34,803 nucleotides of DNA from assembly GCA_021149145.1 (NCBI GenBank), contig GCA_021149145.1_4322.1; one strand, 5' to 3'. The translations under genes were made by a program, and so were the position numbers. Shown one piece after another: positions 4,925-34,438 of the stretch. Source of the DNA: a phage. Each line of letters begins with the position of its first letter. The stretch's first letter is position 1. Below the pieces are notes generated by a model, which ran no database searches, was not told the DNA's origin, and worked only from the letters and a program-made list of their open reading frames with translations.

Positions 4925-5653
4925 TTATGACTCCCAATCCGGCACAGCCCAACAACGACAGCCGTATTCCTGACCAGGGAAGAGATCGTTACCGCCCAAC
5001 CTGAAGCTTAGGCCCTCTTTCTTGAAATGGGTCATTCGCTCCCTTTCATCAAGCATGCCGTGCCAAATGTAATGGGTAACACCAGCATCCTCTAGCCTCC
5101 TGCGCATGAACGTAGAGTTAATACTGGACGTGATGCCTGAGGCTATATTAGCAGTTCTCTTGCGGTAAATCTTGTACCTTTCGTTAATCTTAAGGTAGTC
5201 ACCACTCTGTATGATTGATGCAGACTGAATAAAGTCGTCCTTGATATTGTTGAGTAACTTTTCAACGGACTTATTTGATGTGTAAAGCCACTGGTTTAAA
5301 TCCGGCTGATACCAATCTTCATCTCCATTTATACCGTTAAGTCTCAAGTCCATAACTGACTGGACCGAGCCGCCACCGGTCTTGATTGCCAGCACAAGAA
5401 ACTGCGATGAATTATACCTGTATATTGACGCTCCAATTGCCGGAAGTGTAGCTACAACAGAAGCTATAAGCGCTGCTATGATTGCGTCGAGGTAATTATC
5501 TTCCTGCTCTAGCTCCTCGGCAGTGTCAATCTTAAGCCGCGTAGCTGATTCTTTCATTGCAGATATTAGCTCAGTTACCGCAACGCTAAGGTTGCGGTTT
5601 ACCTGATTCTCAATTGTCTGCGGGTACTTCCAGCGGGTCTTCACTGGTTTCAT
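4925..5653 (-). CDS. Minor head protein (Mu F / SPP1 gp7-like)
   Basis: 242 aa; directly downstream of portal; C-terminal GCRCW cysteine motif typical of Mu F-like head morphogenesis proteins. Confidence 0.6.
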   Translation of the reverse strand: MKPVKTRWKYPQTIENQVNRNLSVAVTELISAMKESATRLKIDTAEELEQEDNYLDAIIAALIASVVATLPAIGASIYRYNSSQFLVLAIKTGGGSVQSVMDLRLNGINGDEDWYQPDLNQWLYTSNKSVEKLLNNIKDDFIQSASIIQSGDYLKINERYKIYRKRTANIASGITSSINSTFMRRRLEDAGVTHYIWHGMLDERERMTHFKKEGLSFRLGGNDLFPGQEYGCRCWAVPDWES

Positions 5654-6887
5654 TGATTGTTACCTCTGTCTCAATTGAACCTTCACCAATCTTAACCTCA
5701 GGGGCTAATGCGCGCAAGGTATCTCGTGCTTCGTCTGCATCCATCACGCCGTTAGTGATAAGAGCAGTAATTGAATCAACGTTATTCTTCAGTGTTTCAG
5801 CGCGGTCTTTCTTCGATTCCTGAGCTAGAGGGTTAAACTCAACTGACCATTCTTGCTTGGTTGTGATGAACGGGATTAAGAACCCAAGAACTGGAAGTAG
5901 CTCTTCGTTACGCTTGCGGTCAACCAACTTATGGAATGTCTCTAGCGCTGTGTTTTGGCTAGATGATAACCCGCCAACGTTACGACCTTTGAGAATGACT
6001 TCATGGATACCACTCAGAGCAACAATTCTGTCGAACTTCTTATCGAGGAATCCATCAATCCCACCAATATCCGAGTTAAGAACGCTGTACTCTTCAGCTT
6101 CAGCGTCGATACCAATCGCGCGACCAACGCCAGAGTTATCATCAACCTGGGCAAGCCTCAACCTGGCCGCACCAAAACCTTCCGCGTCGTCACACAGTTC
6201 AGCAAGGCCTTTAGCCTTCCACACCGCCTGCTGCTTGCGGCGCAATAACTGAGTTGCCAGTTTCTCACACGTCTGATAATCCCTGATTGATTCAAGCAGG
6301 TCAGGAACCAGAACGCTAGCACCCCACCCGTCATTACCGCGACGCAATGAACTAGGAATCTTCTCGCCATCCATAATGTGAATTCGCGAGTAGTGCACAT
6401 CATAAAACATGGCGCCACCTTCTGGCGTGATGCGGTACGTTAATGGCTTACCGAATCGCACATTGCGAGGGTTTTCCTCCCTAGTCTGAACTCTTACCTG
6501 GCTACGCTCATAAACGCGAAGTGATTCAAGTTCCGCACCTTCACGTACCGGGCTAGTTAGCGCACGATTGTCCTTAACGATAGCCACAATTGCAGAGCCG
6601 CCAAATAACCTCGACCATGACCATGCGTCAGAGATTGACTCGTTAACCCTCAGGTAATCCCACCTGGACCAGAATTCACCTTCGTCATCAATACCATCGA
6701 TATGGAAACCTGCAGCGATTGCTGTCTCCGGTATGGTGTCGACGATGCGGCGTACAATTGAGTTTGATGCGTACAGTGAATCAGCGAAAGGAGGTGTAAG
6801 ATACGTGTTGCCAAAGTGCCCGTAAATCTCGCTACCATCACTGGGGCCACCAAGAAATTGCGTGGCGTATGAATCTGCTTTTACCAT
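5610..6887 (-). CDS. Portal protein
   Basis: 425 aa; canonical position between large terminase and Mu F-like gene. Confidence 0.7.
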   Translation of the reverse strand: MVKADSYATQFLGGPSDGSEIYGHFGNTYLTPPFADSLYASNSIVRRIVDTIPETAIAAGFHIDGIDDEGEFWSRWDYLRVNESISDAWSWSRLFGGSAIVAIVKDNRALTSPVREGAELESLRVYERSQVRVQTREENPRNVRFGKPLTYRITPEGGAMFYDVHYSRIHIMDGEKIPSSLRRGNDGWGASVLVPDLLESIRDYQTCEKLATQLLRRKQQAVWKAKGLAELCDDAEGFGAARLRLAQVDDNSGVGRAIGIDAEAEEYSVLNSDIGGIDGFLDKKFDRIVALSGIHEVILKGRNVGGLSSSQNTALETFHKLVDRKRNEELLPVLGFLIPFITTKQEWSVEFNPLAQESKKDRAETLKNNVDSITALITNGVMDADEARDTLRALAPEVKIGEGSIETEVTINETSEDPLEVPADN

Positions 6888-22823: not shown

Positions 22824-24533
22824 TCAATCCTCCATCGTAAATGATTTGTTGGCGATAATATCTTGAGACTTCTGGTTTTTACGGTGTGTGATTCTCAATG
22901 GGGCACGGAATAGATGTGCATTTGTCATAATCATTCTAGCATTACGCAATCTGCCAATTCTGAATGCCTCATTCCTGTTATCGATGTGTGTTGAGCAGAA
23001 AGCCTTCCATTTAACAGAGCAAACGCGATGGTCTGATTCAGGGAAGAATGTTTCATAAGCTCGGAATCTGTCACCACTGTGAGCCATAACCTCATATGAA
23101 GCAATAATCCCTGACTGGTTCTTTGTTAACCCAATCTTGAAGTCATAAACTCGCAACCAGTCCCCCTTACGATACATTTTTCCTGATAACTTAGCATTCG
23201 GGTCTATGAGCATCTCACCACAGCATCTGCAATTCTTAGCTGCAATATCATTCTTCTCACCGCATCCTTTCTTGATGATAGCTTTGGTCTGTGGGTCCGC
23301 CATATCTTCACACAGTATAAACTGAAAGAAGTGCTCGCAACGCTTACCGTCAATTACATTATTACAACGCCGTGCGAACGGAGAGTTCTCATAAGAACAT
23401 GCCGGGCATACCCTAGGTTCATCACCTCCTTTCCTTGATGACTTAAACTTCTGGTCCTGAACTTCTTCTATAATTGGGTCAAAGTAAAGCTCTGCCATAT
23501 CGTCAAGCGTTCCGGCGAAATCGAGAACAACATGGTCTTCTTTTACCATCCCTGAATCCTTGTGTTTTTTCTTAAGAATTCGCATACCACGACCAAGCAA
23601 CTGAATGAGTAGAGTAATGCTACCAACCTTCCTCAGGATAATGCTTGTATCCCACGGGGGGCAGTTTACGCCAGTTGTGAGGCAACCAATCTGAAATATG
23701 AACTTATATTCTCCGTTGGCTGCCTTCTCAAGTATCTCTCTACGCTTCTTCTCACCAGTGGAGTTGGTAACTATCGCCCAAGTAACACCTTCTGGAAGTG
23801 CGGCTGCCGCCTCCTCGCAATGCCGTTTGCCAGCGCAAGTTACCAATGCAGCATTCCTTGTTTCCATAAACTTAGCAGCAAATCTCATTATCTTTTGTGT
23901 CATCGTTTGGTTTTCGTGAATCTTTGCAGCCATCGCATCCATTTCTTTCTTGCTGAAGTCCTTAACCCCATCACTTCCATCAGGAGTGAACTCACTAAGG
24001 TCGTAGCCCAAATCACCAACTTCACCGTAGACAGTAGGAACAACGAACCCCAAGTCAACAAGGTAGCTGGTTGGCACTTGCATTACAGTTTTGCGCCAGA
24101 ATCCACGGACATTTGGGTTACTAACTACAATGTGGTCGTTGTTACGGTACGGGCTACCAGTTAACCCAAAGATACGAAGTTCGCGACCGTACTTCTCCCT
24201 GCATCGACGCTTCATTTCGGTAATGATTAACGTGTATTGCGCGCGACCAGTGCCAAGAAGCCCGGTATTCACACCATCCTTAAAGACCATCTCACCATTC
24301 TTCGTGCTCATCTGCTCGAATGTTTCCTCATTCTCTTCAGCTTCTACGATATCCATATGGTCCACCATGTGGCAATTATGTGCCACGACCCCGTCAGCAA
24401 TGAAATTATGGTGCTCAGGCATCTCTATATCCCAAACAAGTTCCTTGCCAATTGGTGAGATGTCTTTAATTTTGCTTGATTTTGTATTCCACGCCATTTT
24501 CCATGTGCTTACTAATTCTCTTAAAAAACTCAT
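22824..24533 (-). CDS. Helicase, C-terminal part: 53-aa intein C-terminal segment (blocks F/G) fused to C-extein
   Basis: Starts with ATG right after an in-frame stop; ...ELVWDIEMPEHHNFIADGVVAHN|CHMVDHMD...; C-extein carries helicase motif VI-like QLLGRGMR and a C-terminal Cys cluster. Confidence 0.7.
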   Translation of the reverse strand: MSFLRELVSTWKMAWNTKSSKIKDISPIGKELVWDIEMPEHHNFIADGVVAHNCHMVDHMDIVEAEENEETFEQMSTKNGEMVFKDGVNTGLLGTGRAQYTLIITEMKRRCREKYGRELRIFGLTGSPYRNNDHIVVSNPNVRGFWRKTVMQVPTSYLVDLGFVVPTVYGEVGDLGYDLSEFTPDGSDGVKDFSKKEMDAMAAKIHENQTMTQKIMRFAAKFMETRNAALVTCAGKRHCEEAAAALPEGVTWAIVTNSTGEKKRREILEKAANGEYKFIFQIGCLTTGVNCPPWDTSIILRKVGSITLLIQLLGRGMRILKKKHKDSGMVKEDHVVLDFAGTLDDMAELYFDPIIEEVQDQKFKSSRKGGDEPRVCPACSYENSPFARRCNNVIDGKRCEHFFQFILCEDMADPQTKAIIKKGCGEKNDIAAKNCRCCGEMLIDPNAKLSGKMYRKGDWLRVYDFKIGLTKNQSGIIASYEVMAHSGDRFRAYETFFPESDHRVCSVKWKAFCSTHIDNRNEAFRIGRLRNARMIMTNAHLFRAPLRITHRKNQKSQDIIANKSFTMED

Positions 24534-25514
24534 CTTGTGCCGACCTCGTTGTTATTGATACTGAGTAAAGCTCTCTCTTTTTCTTGCCGCCAATATAGCT
24601 TCTAACCTTAACTCCGTCATTAGCAATAAATGCTATTAGCGCATCAACTACTGATTGAACTTCACTCCTGCTAAATGATTCGGTGTGGATTTCTACAACC
24701 CTCTTCCCTGAGCTTACAGTGCAATGACCATCATCACCAAAGTAAGCAGCCCAACCAACTGGATCAAGCTCTCTGCATATCTTTCCAATATCGTAACCAT
24801 CCTTAGAATTTCCGTACTTATCAGCATATGAATCCAGAACTTTCGTACATGATGTTGATACGCAAAACCAGTTGTCGCCAAATCCAGGGTTTTTCTTCTC
24901 CCTGTATCTAGGGTTTAGTTTTGCAAACCTTTCAACCTTGCTTAGTGCGTGCTCCTTATTTCCAATATTCCAAGATAGCCTATGCGTTCCTTTTTCTGTA
25001 TTTTTAATCAAGCAACCATCACCAGCCATTGCCGCAAGAATGTTTTGATGTAAAAAGTCATCAACCTCCATTGATGGGTTGACGGTTGAATTATGATGCC
25101 CCGTTCTGTAATCCAAATAGAAATCGAAAGGGTTCTTAAGAAGTACGCCTAACCCCTTGCTTGAATGCGGCATAACTTTTTCACCACAGCCACACTTGCA
25201 CGCAGGAGCTTTTTCGTAAATTTGTCCTGCGAGCCGTCTAGCGACAGATTCATCCCAATACGAAGTTTTCCCGCTCCTACCCAGCAGCCGTTCGAATAAA
25301 GTTTGTGTGTACTCGTGCATTTTATTTCCTCTCCGCTTTCTAATTTAATTGATGATACATGTCTTACACCATTAGTAAAAACTCTTTTTGGCTTATGATA
25401 GAAGTAATCACCAGTGCTTTCGTTTATGCATTTTATTTTATGATTGATAAGGTCTTCGCTATCAATCCTCATCATCCCTGAATCGGTGGTTATCATCGTG
25501 TCTCCAGTTAAGCA
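24375..25514 (-). mobile_element. Intein (1140 nt, 380 codons) in helicase motif II, with LAGLIDADG endonuclease encoded in a shifted frame
   Basis: Block A CLTGDTMITT directly after ...VIAIDE; block B KCTSTHKLY; blocks F/G VWDIEMPEHHNFIADGVVAHN then C; joined exteins read DE-CH. The two splicing domains share one frame; the endonuclease ORF is in another. Confidence 0.75.
24466..25320 (-). CDS. LAGLIDADG homing endonuclease (intein-internal or free-standing)
   Basis: 284-codon ORF with its own ATG, two LAGLIDADG-like motifs (ILAAMAGDGCL, AAYFGDDGHC); overlaps the flanking ORFs by 172 and 68 nt. Confidence 0.65.
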   Translation of the reverse strand: MHEYTQTLFERLLGRSGKTSYWDESVARRLAGQIYEKAPACKCGCGEKVMPHSSKGLGVLLKNPFDFYLDYRTGHHNSTVNPSMEVDDFLHQNILAAMAGDGCLIKNTEKGTHRLSWNIGNKEHALSKVERFAKLNPRYREKKNPGFGDNWFCVSTSCTKVLDSYADKYGNSKDGYDIGKICRELDPVGWAAYFGDDGHCTVSSGKRVVEIHTESFSRSEVQSVVDALIAFIANDGVKVRSYIGGKKKRELYSVSITTRSAQDEFFKRISKHMENGVEYKIKQN

Positions 25515-25958
25515 CTCATCTATCGCGATAACAGCAGGAGCATAGTCACCAAGCCCCTTAAACAAGCCGTTAGCAGCCGTTCCCTCACTAGCCACTATGG
25601 TTGGATAGTAAACTGATTTAACGTTAAGGCCAGCGCAATAGACGCTATTACGGATGCCGAAATTACGAAGTTCCTCTGCGTTCTGGCTGACAATCTCTGA
25701 CTGGCGAGATAGGACCATGTAAGGAAGGCCAAGCTGTTCCATTCGTTTCCCAATCATGGCGAGAATAATCGTCTTGCCAGCCGAAACCGATAGGTCTGCT
25801 ATGAATGGCGCTTCGTACTTGCCAATAGCCTTTCCGATTGCGTCAAATGTCACGCACTGGAATGGGTATGGTGTGATTTCTCCGAACTGATAATCATTTT
25901 GAATCTGCTTGATTTTATCTTGGTCAAAGTTTGCTACTAAGCGTTCTACTGGAAGCAT
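25149..25958 (-). CDS. Helicase, N-terminal part: N-extein (148 aa, Walker A SVSAGKT, Walker B IAIDE) fused to 121-aa intein N-terminal segment
   Basis: ORF ends at TAG after intein blocks A and B; same frame as the C-terminal helicase ORF. Confidence 0.7.
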   Translation of the reverse strand: MLPVERLVANFDQDKIKQIQNDYQFGEITPYPFQCVTFDAIGKAIGKYEAPFIADLSVSAGKTIILAMIGKRMEQLGLPYMVLSRQSEIVSQNAEELRNFGIRNSVYCAGLNVKSVYYPTIVASEGTAANGLFKGLGDYAPAVIAIDECLTGDTMITTDSGMMRIDSEDLINHKIKCINESTGDYFYHKPKRVFTNGVRHVSSIKLESGEEIKCTSTHKLYSNGCWVGAGKLRIGMNLSLDGSQDKFTKKLLRASVAVVKKLCRIQARG

Positions 25959-31698: not shown

Positions 31699-31743
31699 AT
31701 GATACCCCACCTGTTAATTTTGTCTTTAGCAATTAGTGCTATT
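31699..31743 (-). promoter_or_regulatory. Motif-type promoter (element + TATCAT)
   Basis: Minus strand AATAGCACTAATTGCTAAA, 22 nt, TATCAT, leader ...CCCATCGAAACGAAAGAGAG; the element's TAG is the exonuclease stop codon. Confidence 0.45.
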
Positions 31744-32908: not shown

Positions 32909-33071
32909 TTCTCTATCTCTCTATTGTTGCGTGCTTTCGATTAGTTAATGATGCCGTACGCACAACGCATAGTCCAATTGGTATCACCTATTAATTAATC
33001 AAGTATACGCGTATAATTTTGTAACTACGTGTAGACATTGGCATGAGTTACGTTTTTAGCCACTTAAGCCA

Positions 33072-33081
33072 AGCTATAGCT
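33072..33081. repeat. Palindrome AGCTATAGCT (paralog of 13287-13300)
   Basis: Read directly. Confidence 0.7.
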
Positions 33082-33235
33082 CAATGTAAATAGTGAGTAT
33101 ACCGTGTATACCGATTTTAGCGGAGGGTGCATAGGTATAGGTGCTGCGCAATACTGTATAAAATCACATGGTATAAAAATTATAAGCGGAACACTCAAGA
33201 ACAGTAGTTACATGATATACAAGATATACATATAT

Positions 33236-33320
33236 AATAATAATAATAAGAGTAAAAGGTTGATATATATAGATATTATAATGTAACTATGGCGTAAACT
33301 GGCGTAACTGGGCGTATACG
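33236..33320. repeat. AT-rich control element, copy B, with three GGCGTA repeats at exact 10-bp spacing
   Basis: (AAT)4-5 + identical 29-mer (33251-33279) + GGCGTAAACT / GGCGTAACTG / GGCGTATACG at 33291, 33301, 33311. Confidence 0.75.
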
Positions 33321-33373
33321 ATTTCCAGCGGATGCATATGGTATACATGGAGTTACATTGGTTACGCGTAAAC

Positions 33374-33417
33374 AATAGCACGAATAGCTAAAACTAATAC
33401 GCAAAACCCTGTATAGT
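33374..33417 (+). promoter_or_regulatory. Motif-type promoter (element + TATAGT)
   Basis: AATAGCACGAATAGCTAAA, 21 nt, TATAGT, leader ...AAACGAGAGAGG before the ATG at 33450. Confidence 0.45.
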
Positions 33418-33449
33418 TGGTCACACAAAAAACGAGAGAGGATTTCAAA

Positions 33450-34139
33450 ATGGTTATTTGGTCTTTATTTGATGGTTCAGGGCTGGCTGTGAAAGATTGG
33501 GCTGAGGCTTGTCACGAGTGCTACTGTTTCAACTTTGATGAGTCTGACCACGGTAGTTACGGGGATTTAAATGCAAAATTTGAACATGAGAACATCACCT
33601 ACGTTAATGCCTGGATAGATGGCAACTTCGACTTTGATGTGAAGCCTGATATCATTTTAGCGTTCCCGCCGTGTACGGATTTAGCCGTGAGCGGGTCAAG
33701 GCACTTTGAGCGAAAGCGACTGGTTAACCATAACTTCCAGATTGAAGCTGCGGAAACATGTAAAGTTGCTTTTAACTTGGCTAATAAGTACGAAGTCCCA
33801 TACATGATTGAGAATCCAATCAGCGTACTGTCATCACTCTGGAGAAAGCCTAATAAGACTTTCCACCCATATGAATACGGAGGCTATTTGCCGGAAGATG
33901 ATTTACACCCGTTTTTTAGCGACCTAATAAAGCCAAAAGACGCATATCCCAAGAAGACATGCATTTGGTATGGCAATGGGTTTAAATGGCCAGAGGCGAT
34001 TCCTGTGGACGTTAACGATGGATTCTCTGACCAATACAAGAAGCTTGGTGGGAAGAGTAAGAAGACAAAGGTAATTCGCAGTCTAACTCCTCGCGGTTTT
34101 GCAAAAGCAGTCTTCATAGCAAATAGCACGAATAGATAA
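33450..34139 (+). CDS. SAM-dependent DNA methyltransferase-like protein (about 229 aa; specificity uncertain)
   Basis: Track ORF 33417 (TTG); better ATG at 33450 with GAGAGAGG RBS; FDGSG (FxGxG-like), FPPC and ENP segments; size matches the small T1 Dam class as I recall it; ends ...ANSTNR via the promoter element. Confidence 0.5.
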   Translation: MVIWSLFDGSGLAVKDWAEACHECYCFNFDESDHGSYGDLNAKFEHENITYVNAWIDGNFDFDVKPDIILAFPPCTDLAVSGSRHFERKRLVNHNFQIEAAETCKVAFNLANKYEVPYMIENPISVLSSLWRKPNKTFHPYEYGGYLPEDDLHPFFSDLIKPKDAYPKKTCIWYGNGFKWPEAIPVDVNDGFSDQYKKLGGKSKKTKVIRSLTPRGFAKAVFIANSTNR

Positions 34140-34166
34140 AGACAAATCCCAAGGATGAGATATCAT
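34122..34166 (+). promoter_or_regulatory. Motif-type promoter (element + TATCAT)
   Basis: AATAGCACGAATAGATAAA, 22 nt, TATCAT, leader ...CCATTGAAACGAAACACAC, AAGGAA RBS, ATG at 34208. Confidence 0.45.
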
Positions 34167-34177
34167 TACTCCATTGA

Positions 34178-34437
<260 letters not shown>

Positions 34438-34438
<1 letters not shown>

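Follow-up and report, generated by a model that had tools for sequence, protein, structure and literature searches.

The stretch of phage DNA analysed here (34,803 nucleotides, referred to below as the window) is an Rtp-like Drexlerviridae (Braunvirinae) genome, 84% of which aligns with phages AN_ECEAS and ES at ~92% identity. Towards its right-hand end it carries a gene for a compact methyltransferase between two copies of a short direct repeat. The features of this locus are as follows.

33374–33392, no strand assigned: upstream copy, AATAGCACGAATAGCTAAA, of a 19-nt direct repeat that delimits the gene cassette
33434–33441, plus strand: Shine–Dalgarno-like GAGAGAGG, with a spacing of 8 nt to the ATG, identified by inspection of the sequence
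33450–34139, plus strand: coding sequence of the compact Dcm-like cytosine-C5 DNA methyltransferase, an ATG-initiated open reading frame of 229 aa
33468–33482, plus strand: motif I, F7-D-G9-S-G11, which forms the SAM-binding loop following strand 1 (residues 2–6) and is placed on FAGIGG of E. coli Dcm by profile comparison
33663–33695, plus strand: motif IV, F72-P-P-C75-T-D-L-A-V-S-G82, with the Cys75 codon at 33672–33674, aligned to GFPCQPFSLAG of E. coli Dcm
33810–33818, plus strand: motif VI, E121-N-P123, a variant of ENV, aligned to ENV of E. coli Dcm
33945–33971, plus strand: strand-7 segment Y166-P-K168-K169-T-C-I-W173-Y in the place expected for motif VIII, assigned by position only
33975–34046, plus strand: residues 176–199, a short variable segment in the usual place of the target-recognition domain, assigned from entropy, pLDDT and family comparison
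34077–34115, plus strand: R210-S-L-T-P-R-G-F-A-K-A-V-F222, a conserved C-terminal segment with the last helix (215–226), assigned from conservation and the helix in the model
34122–34140, no strand assigned: downstream repeat copy, AATAGCACGAATAGATAAA, which extends over the final codons and the stop of the methyltransferase gene

The first-pass annotation of this DNA had described a methyltransferase-like open reading frame of ~229 aa at 33450–34139, and the frame is real: residues 1–227 of its product lie on positions 15–220 of the 247 in the PHROG 757 `DNA methyltransferase' profile (E = 1.2e-82, 277.7 bits), a match well outside what chance would produce. A longer version starting from a TTG at 33417, offered by the ORF finder, was rejected, as its 11 extra residues are absent from every homologue. 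Promoter and terminator scans around the gene gave matches that were not above those in shuffled sequence, and Rfam gave no meaningful match in the same surroundings. The 540-bp AT-rich intergenic region (32909–33449) that separates the methyltransferase gene from the divergent recombination operon contains three tandem ~10-bp GGCGTAA-like units at 33291–33320 (TGGCGTAAAC, TGGCGTAACT and GGGCGTATAC), which are partly conserved in Rtp, TR2 and AN_ECEAS and could be regulator-binding sites or iterons. The methyltransferase gene heads a small rightward accessory unit, in which it is directly followed by a gene for a 76-aa lipoprotein homologous to Rtp45 (34208–34438; PHROG 4281) and then by one for an Rtp44-like membrane protein, which is truncated where the window ends.

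An HMM search against methyltransferase families had been suggested as a check on the first reading. It matches PHROG 757 end to end, while the score against the C-5 cytosine DNA methylase family PF00145, 16.3 bits, is below the gathering cutoff of 22 bits; 18 of 80 relatives match PF00145 at E ≤ 0.01, the best of them at 1.3e-6. No match was found in NCBIfam, and PDB sequence searches using the protein alone or an 80-sequence profile found no relative. Homologues are nevertheless abundant: 1,886 in a large protein collection at E ≤ 1e-3, 1,143 among the 50%-identity cluster representatives (all of which were searched) and, by tblastn, matches in 1,526 of 50,697 phage records, mostly from phages of Escherichia, Klebsiella and Salmonella. 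Among 150 listed representatives 101 are 200–270 aa in length, the remainder being mostly shorter fragments with a few longer proteins of up to 453 aa. With a single domain of 229 aa, the window protein falls in the ~210–260 aa size class of the compact phage Dcm-like family. This family of orphan phage cytosine-C5 DNA methyltransferases is known and has been characterised experimentally, and the window protein adds a new member to it.

Conservation was counted over 102 sequences, comprising the window protein and 101 family representatives. In motif IV Cys75 is present in 101 of these and Gly82 in all 102; in motif VI the Glu is found in 101, the Asn in 95 and the Pro in 100. The retention of the Cys and the Glu in 101/102 sequences argues that catalysis has been retained. 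The middle Gly of motif I, on the other hand, is not conserved across the wider family, and two canonical residues are replaced here: the Gln of GFPCQ by Thr, with the Pro74-Cys75 dipeptide kept, and the Val of ENV by Pro. The FDGSG and ENP segments that the first-pass annotation had picked out thus both have counterparts in E. coli Dcm. The same annotation had called FPPC atypical, neither an N6-adenine nor a clean C5 motif; the segment is present, but the description does not hold. Because the family profile places FPPCTDLAVSG on GFPCQPFSLAG, FPPC is the Pro-Cys nucleophile motif of C5 enzymes and not as an N6/C5 intermediate. An N6-adenine or N4-cytosine amino-methyltransferase was also considered and dropped, since the residue after PP is a Cys instead of the required aromatic (Tyr, Phe or Trp) and the fold matches favour C5 enzymes.

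When the 102-sequence family profile was compared with a four-sequence alignment of canonical C5 enzymes, the match (probability 91.6%, E = 8e-7) covered residues 2–129 only; the canonical alignment included M.HhaI and DNMT3A, and we take this comparison as supporting evidence only. With a shallower 80-sequence alignment, hhalign matched E. coli Dcm or CmoX as single sequences over motif IV or motifs I–IV only, and weakly. The AlphaFold2 model built from 80 relatives (pLDDT 89.8, pTM 0.89) has the catalytic-domain fold of the C5 methyltransferases. The nearest solved folds are those of DNMT3A and DNMT3B (PDB entries 6u8p, 4u7t and others), at 10–16% sequence identity. These differ from the window protein in being eukaryotic, dependent on oligomerisation and CG-specific, and in retaining motifs IX and X.

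The C-terminal half departs from the canonical enzymes, and its last 100 residues gave no confident alignment to them with the 102-sequence profile. Motif VIII (QxRxR) is absent at its expected position, which is occupied by YPKKTCIW, a segment without Arg in which Lys168 and Lys169 may act as substitutes. This strand-7 segment is strongly conserved (Tyr166 in 99, Lys168 in 98, Thr170 in 97 and Trp173 in 100 of the 102 sequences), and its KK-T-W residues, like the loop formed by residues 139–169, hardly vary within the family, a pattern in favour of a single, common DNA-binding mode. The segment that follows, residues 176–199, has the highest entropy in the C-terminal half (2.76 bits, compared with 1.5–1.7 in the motif blocks) and the lowest pLDDT (71–82), and is most likely the DNA-contacting part. 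Canonical C5 enzymes have a target-recognition domain of ~80 aa or more between motifs VIII and IX. Here the gap from the strand at 170–175 to Arg210 is ~35 residues, of which ~25 are variable, and there is no full-size domain of this kind. The C-terminal end of the protein, RSLTPRGFAKAVF, resembles motif IX of E. coli Dcm, RRLTPRECARLMGF (RSLTPR against RRLTPRE), a resemblance confined to a part of a forced alignment with zero confidence, and so a lead, not a test. Motif X (GNxV) is absent from the protein, the chain stopping seven residues past Phe222. Compared with E. coli Dcm and other CCWGG enzymes of the M.EcoRII type (PF00145), the window protein therefore shares motifs I–VI and, presumably, chemistry and site, but the E. 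coli enzyme is about twice as long (472 aa) and has a large target-recognition domain, QHRER as motif VIII and FGNSV as motif X, none of which is recognisable here.

The best match to the window protein is bas02_0026 of JeanPiccard (Bas02), an Escherichia phage of the Braunvirinae in the BASEL collection, which is 91% identical, occupies the same locus between the same neighbours and flanking 19-nt repeats, and is called a `Dcm-like C5 cytosine methyltransferase' by annotation only. A more distant homologue, bas06_0055 (gp55) of KarlJaspers (Bas06), is 711 bp in length and its product is 58% identical to the window protein over the full length. KarlJaspers leads to the functional literature, as phage K42, in which a gene of this family has been studied with retron Ec86, is a 95%-identical relative of it (10.1101/2023.08.16.553469; later Cell Rep 2024, 43:114857). 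The K42/KarlJaspers protein belongs to the same compact family (236 versus 229 aa) with the same motifs I, IV and VI, and is likewise encoded by an orphan gene in a Drexlerviridae coliphage. It differs in its genomic locus, among small early genes, in coming from the Tempevirinae rather than the Braunvirinae and in its segment 182–198, which is of the NPGW type instead of FSDQY; the variable segment reads DDKDNPGWAK in KarlJaspers and DGFSDQYKK in the window protein. Activity and retron triggering have been demonstrated for K42 Dcm only.

In the K42 study all four of four retron Ec86 escapers had lost or disabled the 711-bp dcm gene, and a point mutation 9 bp ahead of its start codon was present in two retron escapers (10.1101/2023.08.16.553469). 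Expression of K42 Dcm was toxic only alongside the retron. It raised 5mC in msDNA as measured by LC-MS, which a C82A/E128A/K175A/K176A mutant did not, Lys175 and Lys176 having been predicted to bind substrate (10.1101/2023.08.16.553469). The KarlJaspers product has Cys82, Glu128, Lys175 and Lys176 at exactly the K42 Dcm positions, and the four residues whose joint mutation inactivates K42 Dcm correspond to Cys75, Glu121, Lys168 and Lys169 of the window protein, where all are kept. The CCWGG site of K42 Dcm was assumed from the host Dcm, without genome-wide mapping, and the motif in msDNA was then mutated: changing either C of CCTGG in the stem-loop abolished defence against K42 (10.1101/2023.08.16.553469). 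In the same work control msDNA from MG1655, which has its own dcm gene, contained little 5mC despite the presence of CCTGG, and the phage enzyme therefore did something that the host Dcm did not under those conditions.

A further family member, gp52 of Pantoea phage AAS23, has 55.6% identity to the window protein and comes from a phage of another host. It was matched by HHpred at 99.7% to a Shigella C5 methyltransferase, and AAS23 DNA was found by restriction digests to be Dcm-methylated, a correlative result as the host could have methylated it (PMC8004638). Protection of phage DNA, which the first-pass annotation thought probable, is a conjectural role for the enzyme. In the BASEL work there was no correlation between methyltransferases of this kind and resistance to restriction, and the Braunvirinae were highly restriction-sensitive.

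The methyltransferase gene is a 748-bp presence/absence cassette, as seen from its flanking repeats, from the single copy that joins the flanks in Rtp and AN_ECEAS, and from the boundaries of nucleotide matches. The two repeat copies are identical at 18 of 19 nt. The repeat, AATAGCACGAATAG, is present in two copies where the gene is present (the window and JeanPiccard, which has the same two copies around its gene) and in one copy where it is absent (Rtp and AN_ECEAS), the single copy there connecting the left and right flanks. In megablast comparisons the matches of gene-less phages start at 34121–34123, and the left-flank matches of TR2 and IMM-001 stop at 33371 and 33392, at or just before the upstream repeat; beyond this point both phages have other sequence, which in TR2 includes other genes. 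The closest whole-genome relatives of the window lack the gene, and the KarlJaspers homologue is found at a different locus.

The gene is also an orphan. Among the 20 open reading frames between 12.6 and 34.4 kb that were scanned against PHROG there were helicases, lysis genes, kinases, an exonuclease, a primase, a tail fibre, SSB, Erf, ExoVIII and a lipoprotein, and neither a restriction enzyme nor a second methyltransferase. When the two N6-adenine enzymes of JeanPiccard and KarlJaspers served as tblastn queries, no homologue was found anywhere in the window. Both results agree with the earlier description of the enzyme as an orphan.

We note several other features of the genome. JeanPiccard differs from the window in having a 155-aa putative N6-adenine methyltransferase beside exoVIII, whose gene and a small ORF separate the Erf-like gene from that for ExoVIII (stretch 5259–6108); in the window the Erf-like and ExoVIII genes are adjacent (31710–31739) and the N6-adenine methyltransferase is absent. 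The whole window contains 24 GATC sites where 146 are expected, a depletion of about six-fold, and it yielded no Dam-like methyltransferase; the sites are depleted in Rtp (ratio 0.35) and JeanPiccard (0.29) as well, but not in KarlJaspers (1.00), which encodes a Dam-like enzyme. The DNA helicase at 22824–25958 (minus strand), which is the single 664-aa gene rtp53 in Rtp, is interrupted by ~1,148 bp containing a free-standing double-motif LAGLIDADG homing-endonuclease ORF in another frame (24466–25320). Both parts of the helicase share one reading frame, with a stop codon between them, and Rfam found no group I intron or anything else meaningful in the insertion; an intron, a degenerate intein and a split gene all remain candidates. 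Two records labelled `Campylobacter phage A110b/A123' (MG065688 and MG065669) have 83% nucleotide identity to this E. coli T1-like region, which suggests that they are mislabelled or contaminant genomes.

We are fairly confident that the gene encodes an orphan, SAM-dependent cytosine-C5 DNA methyltransferase of PHROG 757 in an Rtp-like coliphage, that its most likely site is CCWGG and that it can be a liability in hosts with retron Ec86/Eco1. By analogy with other C5 enzymes, Cys75 would attack C6 of a flipped-out cytosine and Glu121 would activate the ring through N3/N4; the N-terminal Rossmann half, with motif I and its neighbours, would bind SAM, whose methyl group would pass to C5. The substrate of the enzyme is most likely phage DNA, with other DNA in the cell methylated incidentally, and its target CCWGG, which the host Dcm and EcoRII-type restriction also recognise. 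The formation of 5mC, the triggering of the retron and the EcoRII resistance of phage DNA are literature results for homologues only, and by analogy with these we infer the activity, site and biological role of the window protein. The variable segment differs between the window protein and K42 Dcm, and for this reason CCWGG is carried over as a presumed site. The interpretation in the first-pass annotation, which had held that neither target base nor site could be read from the sequence, is partly supported. The motifs are those of cytosine-C5 enzymes, and the frequency of CCWGG is uninformative as to the site. There are 63 CCWGG sites in the window (observed/expected 0.85) and the ratio in the gene-less Rtp is 0.78; the site is avoided in neither, and ratios so alike with and without the gene speak neither for nor against it.

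Other interpretations need to be weighed against this one. It is unlikely, in our view, that the enzyme is a C5-cytosine DNA methyltransferase with a specificity other than CCWGG, which may be a shorter or different motif (compare CG for DNMT3 and GC for CmoX) or a preference for hairpin or single-stranded DNA. Such a specificity would suit the ~25 variable residues that replace a target-recognition domain, the divergence of segment 176–199, the most variable of the C-terminal half, from that of K42 Dcm, and the closeness in fold to DNMT3A/B, which read a dinucleotide through a short loop. The low 5mC of the MG1655 control msDNA, which has CCTGG in a host with dcm, points the same way, as does the assignment of the K42 Dcm site without genome-wide mapping. 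However, overexpression alone could account for the difference from the host Dcm, defence against K42 was lost when either C of the msDNA CCTGG was mutated, the digests of AAS23 DNA were reported to show Dcm methylation, and loop 139–169 and KK-T-W are near-invariant across the family. A broader suggestion, which we consider quite improbable, is that the compact family as a whole is not a simple copy of Dcm: the PPC of motif IV, the near-invariant C-terminal arginines, the lack of a recognisable motif X and the almost complete lack of a target-recognition domain could together reflect the use of carboxy-SAM, yielding 5-carboxymethylcytosine, or a short non-CCWGG motif or hairpin DNA as the target. 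The K42 preprint looked at 5mC only and did not map sites (10.1101/2023.08.16.553469).

The carboxy-SAM reading of the window protein itself, with carboxymethyl transfer (host CmoA) giving 5-carboxymethylcytosine instead of or besides 5mC, takes as its model CmoX of Synechococcus phage S-B43 (PDB entry 8yf3), a 372-aa DNA cytosine C5-carboxymethyltransferase that adjoins CmoA and an amide ligase, contains SPPC and GRMVPP (Arg350, motif X) and in its wild-type form accepts only carboxy-SAM (PMC12783734). We judge it very improbable. The features that mark CmoX are SPPC, an Arg at the position of Asn304 in M.HhaI and a neighbouring CmoA, whereas the window protein has FPPC and no recognisable motif X, its conserved Arg residues lie in the motif IX-like segment, and the window contains no homologue of CmoA or CmoY. 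Furthermore, the product of K42 Dcm seen by LC-MS in a cmoA-positive strain was 5mC, and the fold is just as close to that of DNMT3A/B, which are bona fide users of SAM. Almost no weight can be given to a non-DNA function, whether as a Dnmt2-like RNA (tRNA) cytosine-C5 methyltransferase or as an inactive remnant with another role such as DNA binding. Homology to a non-DNA methyltransferase was a prospect that the first-pass annotation had raised, but DNA C5 enzymes outscore Dnmt2 in the fold comparison, the catalytic Cys and Glu are kept in nearly the whole family, and the K42 homologue methylates the DNA part of msDNA with an effect that is lost in the catalytic mutant. The most consistent interpretation of the data is, in our view, a cytosine-C5 DNA methyltransferase that most likely acts at CCWGG.

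Much of this is already known: the gene is annotated in close relatives, and both the activity of the family and its part in triggering a retron have been published. The result is of use for annotation and carries little weight as a discovery. A question that could merit experiment is how a 229-aa enzyme that lacks a normal target-recognition domain and motif X chooses its site and binds SAM. In hosts with retron Ec86/Eco1 the activity proposed for CCWGG would also methylate the msDNA stem-loop and lead to abortive infection; that the gene can be a liability in such hosts fits its presence or absence as a repeat-flanked cassette. Recombination between the repeats would offer a ready route for losing a gene that is lethal there. 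Hosts with retron Ec86/Eco1, BL21 among them, are predicted to be restrictive for the phage, from which escapers would arise if the 748-bp cassette were lost spontaneously.
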